This document shows, piece by piece, positions 1 through 9,586 of a stretch of 64,000 nucleotides of DNA. Source of the DNA: Acidimicrobiia bacterium (lineage in GTDB: Bacteria; Actinomycetota; Acidimicrobiia; Spongiisociales; ZC4RG35); contig JBBDQN010000032.1 of NCBI GenBank assembly GCA_040905905.1, forward strand, positions 30,796 through 94,795, read 5' to 3'. How positions within the stretch are numbered: the first letter of the stretch is position 1; each line of letters starts with the position of its first letter. The notes under the pieces are model-generated. The model ran no database searches. It was not told the DNA's origin and saw only the letters and a list, made by a program, of their open reading frames with translations. Position numbers and translations under genes: made by a program.

Positions 1-2678
1 TCGACCAGCCAGGGAGTGACAGTGGCAAAACGGCTGGAGGTGAAAGCGCTAAACGCCTCTGGGACCGCGGGACCGCTATCCGCTTCAGGGAGGTCGTACA
101 GATCGGTAGTGACGTCGTCGAAGGCAAGTTGGCCCCGGTGGTGCAATTCGATCCGGCGATGGATGTCGGTGCCGTGGCGGGCGGCTGGATTGGGCCGGCG
201 CGGGAGGCGATCTACCTCGGTCCAGAAGAACCGCCGGGGACACCCGGCATAGGTGACCAACCCGGTGACCGACGTGCTCAACAACGATTCGATCGGGTCC
301 GGTCGGTCGGGGGGCAGGTCGATCAACATCTGGACGAACTCGGTGTGATCGACGACAAAGCTGTCGGCCACGTCGACCAATCCGGCCTGGGTGGCCGCCC
401 ATCCCGGGTGGGCGAGCTCGGTGCGCAGCGCCGCATCCCACCCCTGGTGGAAGACCGGGTCGGGGCCGGGAGGGGAGGGCTCAAACCGCAACATGAGCGG
501 CCGGGGCGGTGGTTCCGCAGCAGGTGACGACTCGACCCTGGTGGAGGAATGTTCGGCCACCAGACGCCAGAGGTCGCTCGGCGGGACCGGCTTGGCATGG
601 GGTTCGGGGTGGCCGTACCACGTGGCGCCGCTGACGAAGAGCCGCTCCTTGGCCCTGGTCATGGCCACGTAGGCCACTCGCCACTCCTGGCGAAGGTGGT
701 GCTCGCGCAAGATGTCGTCAGCGTCTTTCTTCTCCATGTCGGCGGTGATGGGCGGCAGCCCGGCGGTGTCGAGACGCAATTCGTAGGGGAGGTAACGCCC
801 CGAGCGATACGGGTTCTCAAATCCCGCCGACCTGGTTGGGAAGTTGTCGCGATAACAGGCCGGGACAAACACCACCTCCCATTCCAGTCCCTTGGCGCGA
901 TGAACCGTCAGCAGGATCACCGCGTCCTCGCCGGACAAACGGGCGGTATCGAGCTCCTCGGTGGCGTCCTCATCCATCAGTGACAGGAAGTCAAGGAAGG
1001 CCTCGAGCGAAGGCCGTCCTTCCAATGGGCTCCACTCCTCGGTGAGATCGAGGAAGCGGTAGAGATTGAGGCGGGCGGTGAGCTGTTCGGTTTCGGGCAG
1101 CGACGCTAGGTCCTGCCAGGCCCCGACCCGATCGAGGATGCGACGACACAACTCGACCAGAGTCACCCCTTGCGCCGCCGAGAGCAGGTGGCGGTATTCA
1201 TCACCGAATCGCTCCAGCGCCATCCGCGCCGCCGGGCGGAGGCCCTCGATCTCGTCGAGATGATCCACCGCCTCCAACAGGGTGTGCGGGGAGGTAAGGA
1301 GATGTTCGGCCTGCTCCCGGCGGCCCGGGTCGCGGCTGCGAACCCATCCGGCCAGGGAGCGGAGGTCGCCCATGCCGAGGCGAAAGCGGCTCCCCATCAA
1401 CACTCTGAACAGGGACGGCTCGTCGGACGGATCCTGAATGATCGCCAGCCAGGCCCGGAGGTCAGCCACCTCGGGGATGGTGAGAAGGCCTCCCAGGTTG
1501 GCGACCTCGACCGGGATACCACCAGCTCGCAGAGCGTCGTGAACGAGCACCATGTCTTTGTTCTTTCGAAACAGGACGGCCATGTCTTTCCAGTTGTGAT
1601 GAGCGTGAAGCTGGGCGAGGGTGCGGGCGATCCATTCCGCCTCGGCCACGGAGCTGTCGTGCCAGGAAACGGCCACCTCGCCGCCGATGCGATCGCGCAG
1701 GGGCACCAGGTCGGGCTGGCCCGACCCGGTGCGGGCTCGGACCGAGTTGGCGAGGTTGATGATCGAGCGGTGCGAGCGGCGGTTTTCGGTGAGGTGAAGA
1801 GTCGAGCTAGGAGAGCCGTCCTTGAGCGGAAAGTGAACGGGGAAGCTTTCGAAATTGTCTGGCGACGCCCCGCGCCACTCATAGATGGTCTGATCGGCGT
1901 CGCCCACCGCAGTCAGCGGAAAGCCCGCCGGGAAGAGGGTGCGCAGGAGCTCGCGTTGGCCGGGGTTGGTGTCCTGGTATTCGTCCAGGAGAACAGCCTG
2001 ATAACGGTCCCTGATCTCGGCTGCGACCTCGGGGAACCTGGTCAGAAGACGATGGGCCATCACCACCAGATCGGCATAGTCGGACACCCCGAGTCGCCTT
2101 TTCTCCCTCTGGTAATGAGTGAGGCCGGTCAGAAGCGCCGATCGAAGCTCCCACGGCGAACCGGCTTCGAACTCAGGGACCGCAACCTCGTCGGCAATGA
2201 GCAGGTGGTCCCCCAATGACGACCCGAGTCGGCGCAGGTCTTCCACGGTACGGGCATAGGTGGCATCGAGACCGGGGAGCTCGACCGATCGCAGGATTTG
2301 GCTGAGGAGCTGGCGGGTGAAAGTGGGGGTGATGACTCCGGCGCGCCGCTCGACTCCCACCAGGGCGCCAAACTCGCGGAGGATCTGGGCGGCGAAGCCG
2401 TGATAGGTGTGGACCTCCACCTCCCGACCTTCATCGACCAGCACACTGGCGTTGGATTCGCGCAACATCTGCCGAATGCGATCTGCCAGTTCGCCCGCGG
2501 CTTTGTTGGTGAAAGTGATTCCGAGGAGCCGTTCCGGTTCAACTTGGCCGGCGGTGACGAGGTGAACCACCCTGGCCGCCATGGTGGTGGTCTTCCCGGT
2601 TCCGGCGCCAGCTGCCACTCGCAGGGGGACGAACGGTGCGGTGATGATGGCTGCCTGTTCAGGCGTGGGAACGATCAT
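1..2678 (-). CDS. UvrD/AdnB-like SF1 helicase-nuclease, 3' end cut by window edge
   Basis: The frame is open from ATG 2678-2676 to position 1, so it is absent from the ORF track (no listed minus ORF uses this frame). My translation: MIVPTPEQAAIITAPFVPLRVAAGAGTGKTTTMAARVVHLV..ITFTNKAAGELADRI (motifs I/Ia), VLLDEYQDTNPGQ (II), VGDADQTIYEWRGA (III), TVHRAKGLEWEVVFV (V), VAYVAMTRAKERLF (VI). The distal part has GCPRRFFW, typical of a RecB-type nuclease. ATGA overlap with the upstream gene stop. Confidence 0.8.
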   Translation of the reverse strand, partial: MIVPTPEQAAIITAPFVPLRVAAGAGTGKTTTMAARVVHLVTAGQVEPERLLGITFTNKAAGELADRIRQMLRESNASVLVDEGREVEVHTYHGFAAQILREFGALVGVERRAGVITPTFTRQLLSQILRSVELPGLDATYARTVEDLRRLGSSLGDHLLIADEVAVPEFEAGSPWELRSALLTGLTHYQREKRRLGVSDYADLVVMAHRLLTRFPEVAAEIRDRYQAVLLDEYQDTNPGQRELLRTLFPAGFPLTAVGDADQTIYEWRGASPDNFESFPVHFPLKDGSPSSTLHLTENRRSHRSIINLANSVRARTGSGQPDLVPLRDRIGGEVAVSWHDSSVAEAEWIARTLAQLHAHHNWKDMAVLFRKNKDMVLVHDALRAGGIPVEVANLGGLLTIPEVADLRAWLAIIQDPSDEPSLFRVLMGSRFRLGMGDLRSLAGWVRSRDPGRREQAEHLLTSPHTLLEAVDHLDEIEGLRPAARMALERFGDEYRHLLSAAQGVTLVELCRRILDRVGAWQDLASLPETEQLTARLNLYRFLDLTEEWSPLEGRPSLEAFLDFLSLMDEDATEELDTARLSGEDAVILLTVHRAKGLEWEVVFVPACYRDNFPTRSAGFENPYRSGRYLPYELRLDTAGLPPITADMEKKDADDILREHHLRQEWRVAYVAMTRAKERLFVSGATWYGHPEPHAKPVPPSDLWRLVAEHSSTRVESSPAAEPPPRPLMLRFEPSPPGPDPVFHQGWDAALRTELAHPGWAATQAGLVDVADSFVVDHTEFVQMLIDLPPDRPDPIESLLSTSVTGLVTYAGCPRRFFWTEVDRLPRRPNPAARHGTDIHRRIELHHRGQLAFDDVTTDLYDLPEADSGPAVPEAFSAFTSSRFATVTPWLV

Positions 2679-5671
2679 GTGACGAATCCCTCCCGCCCCT
2701 CTGGCCAGGCCGGACACACCAGTCGGAGTCGACAGCGCCCGCAATGTGGCCCCGGCAGGGGGGTCCAGTCTTCGGCGGCGATGGCGGCGGCCACCCGGCG
2801 CAACTCCTCCGCAACGACGGGGAGATTGGCCTGGTCGAACGAACGGGTGATGCCTGCCAGCGGATACCAGAGTTCAGCCTCCGTTGGGGTACCCCATGCT
2901 GCCAACTCCGGGTCCGCCGCCACTGCCAGCAGATAGAACCCGAGCTGGAGCGATCGTTTGGAGTCCGTGACCGTCGCCGCGGTCTTGCTGGTCTTGTAGT
3001 CGACCACCCTGAGCTCACCCGTCTTGTGGCTTTCGATCCGGTCCGAGTAGCCGGTCCAGCTGTGGCCGTCGAGCTCGAGCGTCAACCTGCGCTCGAGGAC
3101 GACCGGTATGGCAACGCCTCCGGGCCACTCCGCATACATCTTCTCGAGGAGCTGGCGACCCCGGTGATGCCAAGCCTGATTGAGCACCGGTGAGCCGAAG
3201 TTGGCCGACCTCTCCCAGACTTGATCGAGGACCTCGAGGGCGCGGTCAAGCCCGGAGTTGGGCTGGCGTTGTTCAACCGCCTCCTTCTCGGCCACCTCCA
3301 GGACTTCGTGGATCAAAGACCCGAACTCGGCATAGGGGCCGGACTCCTGGGCCGTCTGCACTCGTCTCTCTAGCGCGTATCGACGGGGACAGCTCGAATA
3401 AGCGTCGGCCTGGCTGGGAGACAGGACCAGGGGCAGGCTCACCAGCGGCGAGTCGGGGCCGCGCTCGGGGGCGCCGGCAAACGCCGCGGCGTCCCACAAC
3501 GGCGTCGGGGGCGAGGCCAGAGTGGCCAGCGCGGCCAACCGGCGTGAGGCGCTCTGGGCGGGATCGGTGAAGAGTTGTCGGAGGCTGGCCTGGGCTTCGG
3601 TGACTGTCACGGGCCGACGGTCGGGATCGCGGGAGGGGGCGCCGAGCTGGTCGAAGCCGTCGGCTCCTACCGCCGCCAGCAGAAACCGGGAGGGCCGTCG
3701 TTCACCTTCGTCGATGGCTGCCGAGGTTGCGGTCCACACCACCCGGCGTCTGGCCCTGGTCATGGCCGTGTAGGCCAGGCGCATCTCCTCCTGAAGTCGT
3801 AGCCGGACCGGGTTTTCGGCGGCGGCGTAGGTCGGGGACAACAACTCCGGCCGCAACAAGGCCCGGGAACGACGGAGATCGGGGAACACACCTTCGGCAG
3901 CGTCGGCGATGAAAACCACTTCGAACTCGAGGCCTTTGGCCTGGTGGAGGGTTGTCAGGGTGATGCGGTCGTGACGCCGTCCCAACAAGCTGTAGAGAGG
4001 GGTTGCTTCGAAGTCGTCGTGTTCGGCCAGGCGCCGGACGTCGAGGAGGGTGACAGACGGGTCGCGTTCTTCCTGGCGATCGAGTACCTGGGCGAACGCT
4101 GCCCAAGCCGCTCTGTAGTCGGCAAGGTGGGGATCACCCACTAGCCGTTCCAGTTGGGGAAGTGAGGTCCAGAGGTGCCAGAACCCTTGGTTGGCGCCCA
4201 GTTCTACGGCCCAGCCGGGATCCCGCAAGAGCTCCGCCAGCGGCGAGCCCTCGTCGAGGTCGCGGTCGAGCACTGAGCTCCACGGAGCGAAGTTGCGTTG
4301 CCGGTTGCGAAGAAGGTTTCGTTCGGCGGACAAGGCCAGCCCAAAGAGTGGACCGAGCAATATCCGACGGATTGCCCGATCGACTTCGTCGAAGGAAACC
4401 GAACCTGTCGAACTCTCGCCGGCCGCGGCCAGCGCCAGGTCGAAGACGAGCTGGACCGCAGGATGGTCGACCAGGCGGCGGTCGGGAGCATCGTGAGGGA
4501 TGTGGCGTCGCTCCAGGGACCGGGATAGCTCCGGCAAGAGATGGCGGGTCGTTCGCACCAAGACGGCGATGTTGTGCCACTCGAGGCCTTCGGTTCTGAC
4601 CAGGTGCTCAACCTCGGAGGCAATCCATTCAGCCTCGGCTGTCGCCTGGTCGAAGACGTAGGCCTCCACCCTCCCCTGATGTGCAGCCGGGCGGACGGGT
4701 CCGGCACCTCCTGGCAAGTCACCTCCGGCGACGATTCGCAAGGCACTGCTCAAGATCTCGGCGGGCACACGAAAACTCTGAGTGAGGATGAGCCGGCGGG
4801 GCTGGCCGAAAGACCCAAAGCGGGCACCAAACTCGGCGACATTGGCAATCTCGGCGCCCCGGAACGAATACACGGACTGGTACGGGTCGGCGGCCACTGT
4901 GATATTGCCGTGATTGGCCACCAACAACTCCAGCAGACGTGCCTGGGCAGGGGCGGTGTCCTGGTATTCATCAACCAACACATACCGAAACTGTTCACCA
5001 AGGGTGGCGGCGACACTCGGCTGTTCCAGACAACTGACCGCTGCTGCCTGGAGACCGCCGTAGTCGATCCGCCCAAGTCGCTCGAGTTCGAGGTCGTATC
5101 GAGTCATGAATCCGCTGAGCGCCCGCCATTGCGGGCGGCCGATCGCCAGGTCGGCGAGGTGACCGGGACCGAGAAGGCGTTCCCGGCTGCGGAGAAGGAA
5201 GTCGGCCAGTTCCTGGCCAAGGGTGTTGGTCGTGAGGAGGGGTCGCAGCGTCAGCGGCCACTCGGAAGGATCCTCCCCGCCGAGGAGGTCCGTGACCAGC
5301 GCCACCTGCTCGGGCCCGGTGAGGAGCGACGGGACCTCACGCCAACCGTGCACTGCGGGTCCATGGACCTCTAGCAGACGGTGAGCGAAGGAGTGGAAGG
5401 TGGAGGCGCCGACGCCGGGACCACCCGATGGGAGGCTGGCAACGACCCTGTGGCTCAACTCCCCGGCGGCCCGGCGCGAAAAGGTGAGGATGAGGATCTG
5501 GGAAGGTTTGGCCTTGCCCGATTCGACGAGATGGGCGGCCCGACCCACCAGGAATTCGGTCTTACCGGTGCCTGGCCCGGCCACGACCAACTGTGGTCCG
5601 TCGCAATTAGCAATCGCTTCTGGCCACCCGTCGGGTTCGACCCTGATGTCAATGAGGTTTGCTGATGTCAT
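2675..5671 (-). CDS. UvrD/AdnA-like SF1 helicase with C-terminal RecB-type (Cys4) nuclease
   Basis: ORF 2675..5800. Start trimmed to ATG 5671 (MTSANLIDIR) because the 43 upstream codons are Cys/Arg-rich and overlap the divergent gene. Motifs: VVAGPGTGKTEF, LTFSRRAAGEL, VLVDEYQDT, AADPYQSVYSFRGA, LHQAKGLEFEVVFI, LAYTAMTRARRRV. C-terminal VVDYKTSK nuclease motif plus SCPRRY...CGRCRLRLVC. Confidence 0.85.
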   Translation of the reverse strand: MTSANLIDIRVEPDGWPEAIANCDGPQLVVAGPGTGKTEFLVGRAAHLVESGKAKPSQILILTFSRRAAGELSHRVVASLPSGGPGVGASTFHSFAHRLLEVHGPAVHGWREVPSLLTGPEQVALVTDLLGGEDPSEWPLTLRPLLTTNTLGQELADFLLRSRERLLGPGHLADLAIGRPQWRALSGFMTRYDLELERLGRIDYGGLQAAAVSCLEQPSVAATLGEQFRYVLVDEYQDTAPAQARLLELLVANHGNITVAADPYQSVYSFRGAEIANVAEFGARFGSFGQPRRLILTQSFRVPAEILSSALRIVAGGDLPGGAGPVRPAAHQGRVEAYVFDQATAEAEWIASEVEHLVRTEGLEWHNIAVLVRTTRHLLPELSRSLERRHIPHDAPDRRLVDHPAVQLVFDLALAAAGESSTGSVSFDEVDRAIRRILLGPLFGLALSAERNLLRNRQRNFAPWSSVLDRDLDEGSPLAELLRDPGWAVELGANQGFWHLWTSLPQLERLVGDPHLADYRAAWAAFAQVLDRQEERDPSVTLLDVRRLAEHDDFEATPLYSLLGRRHDRITLTTLHQAKGLEFEVVFIADAAEGVFPDLRRSRALLRPELLSPTYAAAENPVRLRLQEEMRLAYTAMTRARRRVVWTATSAAIDEGERRPSRFLLAAVGADGFDQLGAPSRDPDRRPVTVTEAQASLRQLFTDPAQSASRRLAALATLASPPTPLWDAAAFAGAPERGPDSPLVSLPLVLSPSQADAYSSCPRRYALERRVQTAQESGPYAEFGSLIHEVLEVAEKEAVEQRQPNSGLDRALEVLDQVWERSANFGSPVLNQAWHHRGRQLLEKMYAEWPGGVAIPVVLERRLTLELDGHSWTGYSDRIESHKTGELRVVDYKTSKTAATVTDSKRSLQLGFYLLAVAADPELAAWGTPTEAELWYPLAGITRSFDQANLPVVAEELRRVAAAIAAEDWTPLPGPHCGRCRLRLVCPAWPEGREGFVT

Positions 5672-6489
5672 CTCCACGAGTAGGCATTGTGGACAGAAAA
5701 ACACGCCAGGTCGACAACAATGCCGTCGTGGTCCACCCGGTTGCAGCCAAAGGCTTTGAGGAGAGTCAACGATACGACCGTGGTCGCCCGGGATATCCAC
5801 CTCAGGCTGTCGATTGGCTGCGGCTAAACCTTGGTTTAGGGCCAGGAAAGCTGACGGCGGACGTGGCGAGCGGGACTGGCAAGCTCACGGGCTCTCTCGC
5901 AGAGGATGGAAGCGGGGTGATCGGTCTTGAGCCAGTTGCGTCTATGCGTCGCCAGTTCCTGATCAACTGCCGGTCCGTTCCTTGTGTCGGGGCGGTAGCC
6001 GAGAGACTCCCTCTCCGTTCAGGTTGCCTGGATGCAATCACGGTGGCTCAGGCATTTCATTGGTTCGATGCGCCTCGGGCCTTGGAGGAGTTTCACCGAG
6101 TGCTGAGGCCGCAGGGTCGAGTGGGCTTGATTTGGAACGTGCGTGATCGATCAGTGGACTGGATTGAGCGTCTCTGGCAGGTCATGGACCGCGTGGAGAG
6201 ACACGCTCCCTGGCGTGACCATGATCGCCTGCCCCTGGCTGGTGTGGCCGGGGCAGCAGGATTCGGCCCCATTCAGCAGGCACAATTCCACCATGTTCAT
6301 ACGATCGATCGGCAAACACTGGTCGACCGGTTTTGCTCGGTCAGTCATGTTGCCGTGCTGTCCGAACCTGAGCGGCAGAGCGTGATCGACGAGGTCCTGT
6401 CGGTTGTTGACGAACACCCTTCAACAAAGGGCCAGCCAACACTGGCGATTCCCTACCGGGTTGACGCTTATTGGATGGAGCGGATCTGA
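5659..6489 (+). CDS. class I SAM-dependent methyltransferase
   Basis: ORF track. YDRGRPGYPP N-terminal signature and ADVASGTGKLTG (motif I-like), then RSGCLDAITVAQAFHWF. The real start may be the in-frame GTG at 5728 (VHPVAAKGF). Confidence 0.7.
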   Translation: MLMSSPRVGIVDRKTRQVDNNAVVVHPVAAKGFEESQRYDRGRPGYPPQAVDWLRLNLGLGPGKLTADVASGTGKLTGSLAEDGSGVIGLEPVASMRRQFLINCRSVPCVGAVAERLPLRSGCLDAITVAQAFHWFDAPRALEEFHRVLRPQGRVGLIWNVRDRSVDWIERLWQVMDRVERHAPWRDHDRLPLAGVAGAAGFGPIQQAQFHHVHTIDRQTLVDRFCSVSHVAVLSEPERQSVIDEVLSVVDEHPSTKGQPTLAIPYRVDAYWMERI

Positions 6490-7317: not shown

Positions 7318-8097
7318 CTAACCCGCCAGGATCTCGGCCGGCGCCCAGGCCGGGCAGCGGTCCCGGAAGGAGCAGTAGTCACAAAGGCGCCCGGGGCGGG
7401 GTGGGAAGAGGTTCTTTTCGATAGCCCGATTGATCGCCTTCCACAGTGCCCGCAACTGCCTTTCCATCGCATCGAGTTGGCTGGCGTGGATCGGGATTCG
7501 ATAAACGGTGGGGCCGTTCAGGTATATCAGGCGGACCTCGGCCGGAGTTTCACCGAGGCGGCGTCTGATCAACAGGGCATAGATCTTCAAGGCGAAAAAC
7601 GCCGGCATGGCGTAAAGCTCGGGCGGGGCTCTGCCGGTCTTGTAGTCCGTGATGATCAGCCGGCCGTCGGGAAGGCGATCGATCCGATCAAGGATGCCGC
7701 GGATGACGATCTCATCGTCGATTGCCTCGAGCATGTCCAGCTCGCGGGCGAGAGGCTCGACCAGGGCCGGGTCTTCGATTCGCAGATAGTTGGCGAGGAG
7801 GGCGAGGCTGTCGAGTCCCCACTGACGTTCATCCTCGACCGAGCCGAAAAGTTCTGTGAACTCTTCGTTGGTCCGAAGTTCACTCCAAGCCTCCCGAAAG
7901 AGGTCGTAAAGACGTTCAGGCGTGCGTTGATCCGCCGACAGGTCATAAAGGCGCTGTAGGGCAAGGTGGGCAGTGGTGCCTCGGGCCTGATACACGGTGG
8001 TGGGCTCGGGCAGGTGGTCGATCGCCCGGAACCGGAACAGTTGCGGGCACGTCTTGAAGTCACCCGCTCTGCTTGGTGACAGCGTCTCTAGTGCCAT
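7318..8097 (-). CDS. PD-(D/E)XK / RecB-family exonuclease with Cys4 (Cas4/AddB-like) pattern
   Basis: ORF 7318..8181 trimmed to ATG 8097 (MALETLSPSRAGDFKTCPQLFRF). Has the ITDYKTGR nuclease motif and C-terminal CDYCSFRDRCPAW. Confidence 0.7.
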   Translation of the reverse strand: MALETLSPSRAGDFKTCPQLFRFRAIDHLPEPTTVYQARGTTAHLALQRLYDLSADQRTPERLYDLFREAWSELRTNEEFTELFGSVEDERQWGLDSLALLANYLRIEDPALVEPLARELDMLEAIDDEIVIRGILDRIDRLPDGRLIITDYKTGRAPPELYAMPAFFALKIYALLIRRRLGETPAEVRLIYLNGPTVYRIPIHASQLDAMERQLRALWKAINRAIEKNLFPPRPGRLCDYCSFRDRCPAWAPAEILAG

Positions 8098-8165
8098 GTT
8101 CGGGACTATACGGGGTACGAATGACAGATTTGCAATTCTCCTCGTCCAGAGCTTCTGCATCACAC

Positions 8166-8195
8166 CGCGAAAACAAATCAACCGCTCGCGAAAAC
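8166..8195. repeat. pair of CGCGAAAAC boxes, 21-nt phasing (module 1)
   Basis: Exact 9-mers at 8166-8174 and 8187-8195. The same 9-mer pair with identical spacing recurs at 8444-8473. Confidence 0.8.
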
Positions 8196-8211
8196 CAAGT
8201 TGTCAGTCAGC

Positions 8212-8241
8212 TTGACGTTGGTCCACCGAGCTCTTTAAGTT
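8212..8241 (+). promoter_or_regulatory. sigma70/SigA-like promoter candidate
   Basis: TTGACG (8212-8217), a 17/18-nt spacer, then TTAAGT/TAAGTT (8235-8241). It sits just downstream of the first CGCGAAAAC pair. Predicted TSS is near 8247. Confidence 0.4.
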
Positions 8242-8353
8242 GCGCCCTGCCTGATCGGGGGTGACTCCGAATAGGCGCCGGAAGGTCGAGAGGCAGTCCG
8301 GCAAGCCATTGGAAGAACGGGCCCTCGGGAACGGAGTTCGAATGGCGAGGAAT

Positions 8354-8398
8354 CCCGAGAGGGTGCGACTTCGGTCGGAGCTCTCTCGGGGTTTTCTC
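8354..8398 (+). terminator. terminator-like hairpin A
   Basis: CCCGAGAG (8354-61) pairs with CTCTCGGG (8383-90). This encloses CGAC-UUCG-GUCG (8366-77) and is followed by GUUUUCUC. Confidence 0.4.
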
Positions 8399-8443
8399 AT
8401 TGGGCGGCGTTCCTTCGTGAACGCTCAGGCAACGGCAACGAGT

Positions 8444-8473
8444 CGCGAAAACGAAAAGCCCCTTCGCGAAAAC
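8444..8473. repeat. pair of CGCGAAAAC boxes, 21-nt phasing (module 2)
   Basis: Exact 9-mers at 8444-8452 and 8465-8473. The second sits in the palindrome TTCGCGAA. Confidence 0.8.
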
Positions 8474-8809
8474 GAGATTGCCAAAACCGGCTCGCAGCCC
8501 CCATTGACGGTCTACATTGACTTTTGCGCTGTGGGGTTCGCCTCAAAGCGACCTGGAAGGCGGGAAACCGTCGTCTAGGGAGCGGATCGACCCGCAAGAG
8601 TTGAACCGCTCGTCGTCCGGGCTCTGCTCGCAAGAGGAGAACGGCCGGGGACCTTCGGGTCGTCGAGCCGCCGGAAACGACACCTCGGAGACCGGAAACG
8701 GTTCACCGAGTATCTCCGGCAACGGGGATAGCTGACATGGTCTTCGGACCAAGCCAGCGTTTCGCTGGCGACAGGATCTTCGGGTCTTGTCACCAAGGAA
8801 CAGCGAGGG

Positions 8810-8860
8810 CCCCGAGAGGGTGGAGATTCGTCGAAGCTCCCTCGGGGCTTTCGTATTCTC
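8810..8860 (+). terminator. terminator-like hairpin B (paralog of A)
   Basis: CCCCGAG (8810-16) pairs with CUCGGGG (8841-47), followed by CUUUCGUAUUCUC. By eye it is roughly 80% identical to hairpin A, including the flanking GCGAGG. Confidence 0.35.
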
Positions 8861-8919
8861 GGACGGAGAACCCGGAGGGTTCCGGGTGGGAAGGGGGAGA
8901 ACCCTCCGGGCTCCGTTCG
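8860..8919 (+). other. long (~20 bp) imperfect hairpin just upstream of the PH-domain gene
   Basis: CGGACGGAG (8860-68) pairs with CUCCGUUCG (8911-19), one G-U pair. CCCGGAGGGUU (8871-81) pairs with AACCCUCCGGG (8900-10). The 18-nt loop is G-rich. Confidence 0.6.
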
Positions 8920-8956
8920 GACATCATGGTCACCACCTGCGAAGTAGCCTCGCCAC

Positions 8957-9586
8957 GTGCCTTACCCATCTCGCCTTCTCAGTCCTGGTGAAGAAGTCGT
9001 AACGGAGTTTCGTCCACACTGGACGGCAATTCTCGGGCCGCTCTCGATCACTCTCGGCGCCCTGGTTGCGATCATCCTCCTCGCCTTTGTCGTCCCTGAC
9101 AGCCAAGCCGGCCTGAGCCGCTTTGGTCCGGCGGTGATCGCGGTGCTCTGGTTGGCGGTGACGCTCCGCGGATTCATCAAATGGTTGACCACCCAGCACA
9201 TCATCACCAACGAGCGGGTCATCCACCGCCAGGGTTTTATCTCCAAACAGGGCAAGGAGATCCCCCTTGAGATGATCAACACGGTTTCGTTTTCCCAGAA
9301 TGTGTTCGAGCGGATAGTGGGCAGCGGGGATGTCGTGATCGAGTCGGCCGGGGAGGGTGGCCAAAATCGGTACAAGGACATCCCCGATCCTGAAGGTCTG
9401 CAGACCCTGATCTATAGCAACCGCGAACAGCGGATGTTCTCGCTGGAAAGAGGGGGCCAGGGCGCCACCAAGGCCGAGCAACTCCAGATTCTCTCAGAGC
9501 TGCACGACAACGGAAAGCTCTCGGACGAGGAGTTCGAGCGCGAGAAGGCCAAGATCATGAACCAGGATCAGGGTGGGAGCCGTTGA
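8957..9586 (+). CDS. membrane bPH_2 (YdbS/YdbT-like PH) domain protein with C-terminal SHOCT motif
   Basis: GTG start. LLSPGEEVVTEFRPHW, then two TM helices, then ITNERVIHRQGFISKQGKEIPL. C-terminal KLSDEEFEREKAKI is SHOCT-like. Confidence 0.65.
   Translation: MPYPSRLLSPGEEVVTEFRPHWTAILGPLSITLGALVAIILLAFVVPDSQAGLSRFGPAVIAVLWLAVTLRGFIKWLTTQHIITNERVIHRQGFISKQGKEIPLEMINTVSFSQNVFERIVGSGDVVIESAGEGGQNRYKDIPDPEGLQTLIYSNREQRMFSLERGGQGATKAEQLQILSELHDNGKLSDEEFEREKAKIMNQDQGGSR

Follow-up and report, generated by a model that had tools for sequence, protein, structure and literature searches.

The intergenic interval at positions 8098–8956 of the 64,000 nt stretch of Acidimicrobiia DNA analysed here (the window) probably holds two tandem, independently transcribed and paralogous genes for stand-alone structured small RNAs (sRNAs), a reading to which we give a probability of about three in four. 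We refer to the shorter RNA (~153 nt, 8248–8402) as type S and to the longer (~335 nt, 8526–8862) as type L; both lie on the plus strand, with a spacer and promoter of ~125 nt (8403–8525) between them. The interval separates a RecB-like nuclease gene on the minus strand from a divergent gene on the plus strand that encodes a membrane protein with bPH_2 and SHOCT domains (the PH gene). It is predicted to comprise four transcription units: the RecB-like promoter, the type S gene, the type L gene and the PH promoter. The original prediction for this interval was of one ~860 nt structured RNA or a giant leader of the PH gene. Neither proposal held, and the single RNA is replaced by two genes, each with a conserved promoter and terminator of its own.

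A common plan for two predicted transcription units

Both genes follow the same order of elements: two CGCGAAAAC boxes, a −10 hexamer of the form TAnnnT, a run of GC-rich hairpins with GNRA or UUCG caps, and an intrinsic terminator with an invariant 5′ strand. The direct-repeat families D1, D2 and D7 show the two units to be in register at both their upstream boxes and their terminators, with 8166–8205 resembling 8444–8483 and the terminator halves 8354–8365 and 8374–8401 resembling 8811–8822 and 8830–8857. The dual box of type S (8166–8195) and that of type L (8444–8473) each consist of CGCGAAAAC, 12 nt and a second CGCGAAAAC; the box starts are 21 nt apart and the boxes are centred near −78 and −57 of the predicted transcription start. 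This paired pattern occurs exactly twice in the 64 kb, where none is expected by chance, and a regular-expression search of the window and of 80 genome loci around PH homologues found it only upstream of the two RNA genes. The 8-mer CGCGAAAA occurs six times in the whole window, four of them inside the gap. We know of no operator, those of GlnR, ClgR, PhoP, MtrA and others included, that the dual box fits convincingly.

The core promoters are of the housekeeping type, with a −35 TTGAC element in type S. A promoter had been predicted at 8212–8241, and it proved real and conserved, although relatives refined its hexamers to TTGACG at 8212–8217 and, after an 18-nt spacer, TAAGTT at 8236–8241 in place of the −10 first read as TTAAGT. 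The type L −10 hexamer, TACATT (8514–8519), is in register with that of type S at the 278-nt offset of the two units. In an alignment of 31 type S sequences, CGCGAAA is invariant in the proximal box and nearly invariant in the distal box; across the same number of loci no change is seen in TTGA or in the final T of the −10 hexamer (TAnnTT), and hardly any in the C of TTGAC or the initial T of the hexamer. The type L promoter, aligned from nine sequences, has the same two boxes, with TACA and the T that follows it invariant and GGTCTACATT nearly so.

Each gene type ends in a GC-rich hairpin, CCCCGAGAGGGU...CUC(U/C)CUCGGGG, followed by a U-rich tail. In type S this terminator is hairpin P4 (8347–8398), a 12-bp GC-rich helix with the invariant CCCGAGAGGG at 8354–8363, a UUCG cap at 8370–8373 and a UUUUCUC tail, the U-tract being UUUUCUCAUU. 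The type L terminator (8804–8853) has a GC-rich helix of at least 12 bp, with the invariant CCCCGAGAGGGU at 8810–8821, and runs into CUUUCGUAUUCUC, its tail reading CUUUCGU/CUUUCUCG. The 5′ strand CCCCGAGAGGG never varies in either terminator and the 3′ strand drifts by G·U-compatible changes; one G·U pair is invariant in each, in 25 of 25 type S and 34 of 34 type L sequences. Invariant G·U pairs in each terminator and in the core hairpin of type L (below) assign both RNAs to the plus strand. The types of loop and the order from promoter to terminator agree with the plus-strand polarity that the original prediction had proposed.

Folds supported by compensatory change

The hairpins listed in the original prediction are all present in the gap, at the positions given there. 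The region is as rich in tetraloop hairpins as had been claimed: with a stem of at least 4 bp and a UUCG or GNRA cap as the definition, the plus strand carries nine and the minus strand one, against a mean of 0.9 and a maximum of four in 616 other 859-nt windows and strands from the same 64 kb, and a mean of 0.7 and a maximum of four in mononucleotide shuffles. A further listed hairpin, GCGUUC/GAACGC (8407–8424), does exist but falls in the variable spacer and is not part of the conserved features.

Type S is predicted to fold into four hairpins: P1 (8249–8276) with the GNRA loop GUGA, P2 (8277–8302) with the loop CGAGAG, the long P3 (8305–8346) and the terminator P4. The fold of 8248–8402 has an energy of −90.1 kcal/mol (z = −6.85) and no shuffle equals it. 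Over 25 sequences 86% of the cells are paired, and 30 of the 50 pairs have changes on both sides; this degree of covariation was reached by none of 500 column shuffles, and when the 3′ partners were slid by one to three columns pairing fell to 34–59%.

Type L is predicted to contain about ten hairpins, among them a three-way junction at 8612–8681. The fold of 8526–8860 (−181.7 kcal/mol, z = −6.84) is likewise equalled by no shuffle. For the 3′ two-thirds of the RNA, in 34 diverse sequences, 96.7% of the cells are paired and compensatory change is seen at 23 of 52 pairs, a level that none of 500 shuffles reached and that compares with 39–63% pairing in the slid controls. An alignment of nine full-length sequences adds compensatory changes in the 5′ hairpin and in the stem that closes the junction, which reads GUCGUCCGG/CCGGAAACGAC in the window and GUCUCUCCU/AGGGAGAGAC in locus L004. 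The covariation that had been suggested as a check on relatives is present in both RNAs. Within the junction lies a 27-nt invariant core hairpin, GGCCGGGGACCUUCGGGUCGUCGAGCC (8643–8669), of the form CGG-G-GAYCC-UUCG-GGRUC-G-UCG; it includes an invariant G·U pair and a G·G mismatch, a pattern in which the sequence is constrained and not just the pairing. In most of the distant lineages one type L hairpin has a conserved C-rich loop, UCCCCGG, where the clade of the window has UUCG.

A covariance model built from type S, R1, was searched in the window and in the loci. Only two matches were found in the 64 kb, one to type S itself (8246–8403, 148.9 bits) and a weaker one to the 3′ half of type L (8707–8859, 55 bits). 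Because the weaker match falls there, type L looks like a type S-like core to which 5′ domains have been added. The second RNA varies in length from ~167 to ~420 nt across lineages through lineage-specific inserted hairpins (for example in L054, L067, L080, L056 and L038). Even the shortest second RNAs keep the type L hairpin and the type L terminator, and for this reason types S and L are best described as two separate groups of orthologues, each of them kept throughout the class Acidimicrobiia.

Distribution and inversion of the cassettes

The PH protein marks the source of the window as a member of the Acidimicrobiia. Both RNA genes are present at the same locus in ~70 of the 80 Acidimicrobiia genome loci, and blastn and nhmmer searches recovered both units, from boxes through terminator, in dozens of them. 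R1 gives two matches, a strong one to type S and a weaker one to the 3′ half of type L, in nearly every locus with enough upstream sequence. A RecB-like homologue lies upstream of and divergent from the PH gene in 61 of the 80. In metagenome contigs, a pattern scan yielded ~27 true members among the 80 loci listed; most of these adjoin a RecB-like or a PH homologue, with neither seen on five short or incomplete contigs, and identity of the PH protein among them extends down to ~37%. The same arrangement of RecB-like gene, sRNA pair and PH gene was also found in metagenome-assembled genomes (MAGs) titled ‘uncultured Acidobacteriota bacterium’ (L023, L025, L029, L031–L033, L041, L045, L050 and L059), labels that are probably wrong.

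The order RecB-like gene, type S, type L, PH gene is kept, and at every junction some lineage has an insertion of unrelated DNA of up to 1–2 kb. The type S cassette (boxes, promoter, RNA and terminator) is inverted in seven loci (L004, L013, L015, L016, L020, L022 and L028), and both cassettes are inverted in five others (L005, L006, L009, L014 and L019), where the second RNA still has the type L hairpin and terminator. The occurrence of such changes between fairly close lineages suggests recurrent local inversions. As the cassettes survive inversion intact, they would be self-contained transcription units, and therefore neither parts of a single 860 nt RNA nor a leader of the PH gene.

A less drastic form of the single-transcript idea is that one ~620 nt RNA runs from the 8212–8241 promoter through the first terminator, comparable to PrrH, with the internal promoter having a secondary role. 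The two units are co-oriented in the window, in L001–L003 and L008 and in many distant loci, and a generic scan rates the terminators as imperfect, both of which would fit this model. However, in nearly all loci a separate dual box and −10 hexamer precede the second unit, and the first unit ends in a 12-bp GC-rich terminator helix that runs into UUUUCUC. In many lineages, moreover, the units are divergent or at least 1 kb apart, so that a fused RNA would not be a conserved functional entity, and we regard a long transcript as improbable.

Another model makes type L a leader acting in cis, a riboswitch or attenuator that controls the PH gene through its terminator. In most loci only 40–150 nt separate the end of this terminator from the PH gene downstream, which has the same orientation, and the invariance of its 5′ strand could reflect an alternative pairing. 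The PH gene, however, has a conserved promoter of its own (8945–8959): the −10 hexamer TAGCCT at 8945–8950 is followed by 6 nt and the GTG start codon at 8957, and gGTAGCCT-N6-ATG/GTG, with no Shine–Dalgarno sequence, is conserved ahead of the gene in most loci. As the conserved hexamer sits exactly 6 nt before the start codon, the PH mRNA would be leaderless, and its promoter, as judged by this conservation, would delimit the RNA genes on the right. Transcripts reading through from type L would then be unlike the leaderless mRNA. One clade has both cassettes pointing away from the PH gene, other lineages have 1–2 kb between type L and that gene, and the same terminator is found on type S, which faces the other way in several lineages. 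A cis-leader or riboswitch was rejected on these grounds, the displacement or inversion of the cassettes in many lineages and the separate PH promoter, and we hold the leader model to be very improbable. A minority of loci differ in having, ahead of the PH gene, a small gene that has a Shine–Dalgarno sequence and encodes a SHOCT-like C-terminus.

Known RNA families and coding potential

The original prediction had recognised no match to RNase P, tmRNA, 6S, 6C or a common riboswitch, and the covariance model search agreed. At gathering scores the 4227 models of Rfam 15 gave no match in the whole window and none in 17 homologous loci; when E values up to 10 were allowed over 8000–9050, five chance-level matches appeared, of 13.9–19.2 bits against thresholds of 40–88. 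The window contains no tRNA or tmRNA, and nothing similar to either RNA was found in plasmid and phage collections. A literature search returned nothing on sRNAs of Acidimicrobiia, the conserved motifs occurring only in unrelated eukaryotic primer lists.

Several known families were considered by structure and position as well. Ms1 was rejected by synteny, the flanking genes being of the PDDEXK_1 and bPH_2 plus SHOCT families and not a HAD hydrolase and an oxidoreductase. A 6S fold was rejected as there is no single long hairpin joining the 5′ and 3′ ends with a central bubble, covariation supporting instead local hairpins and, in type L, the junction. 6C RNA was rejected on the loops, which in the window are GNRA and UUCG with no two hairpins bearing C-rich loops, and on the Rfam result. 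A repetitive extragenic palindromic (REP) element or miniature inverted-repeat transposable element (MITE) was rejected on copy number and position: there are two copies per 64 kb, and in ~100 genomes and contigs these are nearly always beside the RecB-like and PH genes.

The gap contains open reading frames (ORFs) of 59–105 amino acids in several frames, none with a significant Pfam match. Similarity to relatives appears in several frames on both strands, and the frames are interrupted in relatives by stops and frame changes; because of this combination the conservation reads as a nucleic-acid and not a protein pattern. An ORF of 65 amino acids antisense to type S (8203–8400, minus strand) is intact in the three closest relatives and has stops in L013, L015, L004 and L020; conservation of the RNA sequence most likely accounts for it. 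These ORFs, together with the repeat relationship between the two units, are what could be said for a protein gene in decay, a gene for a small protein or a DNA element that is repeated or mobile. With no significant Pfam match, frames that break, compensatory changes that preserve RNA pairs, two copies per 64 kb that are nearly always at the same syntenic locus and nothing similar in plasmids or phages, we find such an origin hardly credible. The claim that the gap encodes structured RNA rather than protein thus stands. Each RNA has its own conserved promoter, an intrinsic terminator in all members and a structure kept by compensatory change, three of the features by which a stand-alone sRNA is recognised, and both appear to be undescribed families of a familiar kind, namely terminator-ended paralogous sRNA genes with a shared upstream element.

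Flanking genes and other features of the gap

The RecB-like gene, encoding a PD-(D/E)XK nuclease (Pfam PDDEXK_1), likely occupies 7318–8097 on the minus strand, with its ATG at 8097, where homology to relatives begins. Its promoter (8105–8126, minus strand) reads TGTCATTC-N8-TATAGT-N7-ATG and is visible on the plus strand as TGACA (8122–8126) and ACTATA (8105–8110). The pattern TGTCAnnn-N8-TAnnnT, 6–7 nt ahead of the RecB-like start codon, is kept in relatives; the mRNA of this gene appears to be leaderless as well, and its promoter would delimit the RNA genes on the left. We take the sequence and spacing of this pattern to be those of the actinobacterial RecA-independent (PafBC-type) DNA-damage promoter. 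Such a match would put the RecB-like nuclease, whose gene adjoins one for a UvrD-type helicase-nuclease, in a DNA-damage regulon.

Other neighbours in the window include, besides the UvrD-type helicase-nuclease, a methyltransferase, a CAP-domain protein and an AMP-binding enzyme. The ORF for the UvrD helicase with its PD-(D/E)XK domain (1041 amino acids, 2675–5800, minus strand) overlaps the start of the divergent methyltransferase ORF (5659–6489, plus strand) by ~140 nt, and the true start of the helicase probably lies further downstream than the start of the listed ORF.

Between the type L terminator and the PH promoter is a 20-bp hairpin (8860–8919), to which no strand is assigned; its 15-nt arms are 93% complementary. 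The original prediction had included it among the hairpins of the large RNA; it is present but conserved only in the two closest relatives (L001 and L002) and so lies outside the conserved family. Read on the minus strand it has a C-rich loop, CUCCCCCUUCCCACCC, and the region coincides with a chance-level match to the Rfam family ar14 (E = 0.42).

Possible modes of action

The dual box, with about two helical turns between its boxes, is presumably the site of a shared activator or a UP-like element, and if one factor or element reads both copies, types S and L would be co-regulated. As to how the RNAs themselves act, our tentative guess, which we rate below even odds, is that both act in trans as protein-binding RNAs that form ribonucleoproteins (RNPs) rather than as base-pairing antisense regulators. 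The sequence constraint lies in helices and internal loops, in the invariant 12-bp terminator helix with its G·U pair and in the type L hairpin with its G·U pair and G·G mismatch; the apical loops exchange GNRA for UUCG between lineages, and no conserved single-stranded seed is visible in the type S or type L alignments. It is this distribution of conservation, with generic loop caps and no seed, that leads us to favour protein binding over antisense action.

The alternative of classical trans-encoded sRNAs, making short antisense contacts with mRNAs, would fit the anatomy of both genes, which have their own promoters, lengths of 150–330 nt and intrinsic terminators. Tandem paralogous sRNA genes such as PrrF1/PrrF2 are known among base-pairing regulators. 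We nevertheless consider this mode unlikely: there is no conserved single-stranded stretch, loops swap between GNRA and UUCG, and the invariant nucleotides are inside helices. For the sole target examined, the first 60 nt of the PH mRNA, unrestricted duplex energies with either RNA were indistinguishable from those of shuffled controls and the sites were not conserved. Two 10-nt complementarities from the repeat analysis, I9 and I10, were not conserved in the alignments either.

Paralogous sRNA genes are found in tandem, as with PrrF1/PrrF2, or at separate loci, as with CsrB/CsrC, RsmY/RsmZ, Qrr1–5 and GlmY/GlmZ. Types S and L resemble these sets in that each gene has its own promoter with the same upstream element and its own intrinsic terminator, and the multi-hairpin body is like that of CsrB and RsmZ. 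Unlike CsrB and RsmZ, however, types S and L have no repeated loop motif such as the GGA of a CsrA-type sponge, carrying generic tetraloops instead, and they come from a different phylum. The actinobacterial 6C RNA is also a widely conserved sRNA, but the C-rich loops that define it are absent from types S and L of the window; in Mycobacterium tuberculosis 6C lies near Ms1, a short RNA thus again having a long one for a neighbour. The raiA motif, OLE, ROOL and GOLLD, large RNAs known from comparative genomics, share with types S and L many covarying helices, abundant GNRA loops and conserved internal loops and junctions. ROOL and GOLLD are much larger, there was no match to the Rfam model of any such orphan RNA, and we recognised no tetraloop-receptor motifs or pseudoknots in types S and L.

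A further possibility is that types S and L, or type L alone, are the Acidimicrobiia counterparts of the abundant RNAs that bind RNA polymerase (RNAP) in other bacteria, namely 6S, Ms1 and CoRP, and that they sequester the core enzyme or holoenzyme, for example in stationary phase. Like type L, Ms1 (MTS2823 in Mycobacterium and scr3559 in Streptomyces) and the CoRP RNA of Corynebacterium are stand-alone, highly structured RNAs of 300–500 nt with their own promoters; their sequences are lineage-specific, and Rfam-style homology searches miss them (PMC9130861, PMC11077062). The actinobacterial RNAP-binding RNAs are unrecognisable by sequence between genera; in Streptomyces coelicolor one long and one short RNAP-associated RNA coexist, and it has been proposed that every species has one RNAP-binding RNA of a possibly novel type (PMC11077062). 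At ~335 nt by its predicted ends, and with a highly structured body and a strongly conserved promoter, type L is of similar length to Ms1, a ~300 nt 6S-like rod with a central bubble and short terminal hairpins (PMC9130861). Both have terminal hairpins, although the middle of type L folds locally, its 5′ third being known from nine sequences. A further point in favour is that the window itself has no 6S or Ms1 match.

Set against this proposal, the folds that covariation supports are strings of local hairpins and one three-way junction, many covarying local hairpins where Ms1 and CoRP have a rod, and no rod with an open-promoter-like bubble is apparent. The synteny of Ms1 is also absent. Its neighbourhood comprises an HAD-IB hydrolase, also annotated as a morphological-differentiation protein, and an oxidoreductase (PMC9130861), and CoRP is flanked by tRNA genes, whereas the genes here are for the RecB-like nuclease and the bPH_2/SHOCT protein. 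With 6S RNA, including the 6S-1/6S-2 pair of Bacillus, types S and L share a structure-dominated, housekeeping-type character and the existence of paralogous pairs, and 6S acts by binding protein; they differ in that E values up to 10 still gave no Rfam 6S match, neither an end-to-end helix nor a central bubble is present, and type S (~153 nt) is shorter than known 6S RNAs. The 6S search covered 64 kb of the genome, and a canonical 6S RNA may lie elsewhere. On balance we think an RNAP-binding role doubtful.

A more novel proposal, about which we are just as doubtful, is that types S and L are the RNA parts of an undescribed RNP system specific to Acidimicrobiia. Type L would be either an RNAP-binding RNA of new fold or another RNP scaffold that presents the invariant G·G/G·U hairpin, type S would be its paralogous partner or competitor, and a dedicated regulator would read the CGCGAAAAC dual box.

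Several points weigh against the interpretation of the gap as two sRNA genes with protein-binding products. A generic sigma-70 promoter and terminator scan of 7900–9200 returned no sites, a result we judged uninformative where −10 hexamers read TAnnnT and terminators contain internal loops; the −10 hexamers here fit this actinobacterial form and not TATAAT. Both terminators do have internal loops and the U-tract of type L is interrupted (CUUUCGUAUUCUC), so that some read-through is possible, and the 5′ and 3′ ends of both transcripts are predicted from conserved hexamers and from hairpins followed by U-tracts. The homologues were gathered by similarity to the window and with a model made from those homologues, which biases the alignments toward the proposed fold, and the shuffle control takes no account of phylogeny. 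The Pfam-annotated neighbourhood includes no obvious gene for an RNA-binding protein, and the argument for protein binding comes solely from where conservation lies.

Significance for Acidimicrobiia

Soil, freshwater, marine and wastewater communities all contain abundant Acidimicrobiia, whose RNA biology is almost undocumented. The locus described here supplies two class-wide RNA families supported by covariation. A covariance model of them would fix the annotation of a recurrent ‘empty’ gap of 0.5–1 kb in hundreds of MAGs. The dual CGCGAAAAC box, confined to these two genes in the sequence examined, provides a clean handle for finding the regulator, and the invariant helical elements look like sites of protein recognition. 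Should type L be the RNAP-binding RNA of this class, the idea that each bacterial lineage possesses a 6S/Ms1-type RNA of its own would gain support; if it is not, type L would still add a new structured RNA of intermediate size, one that combines a junction with an invariant, non-canonical hairpin.

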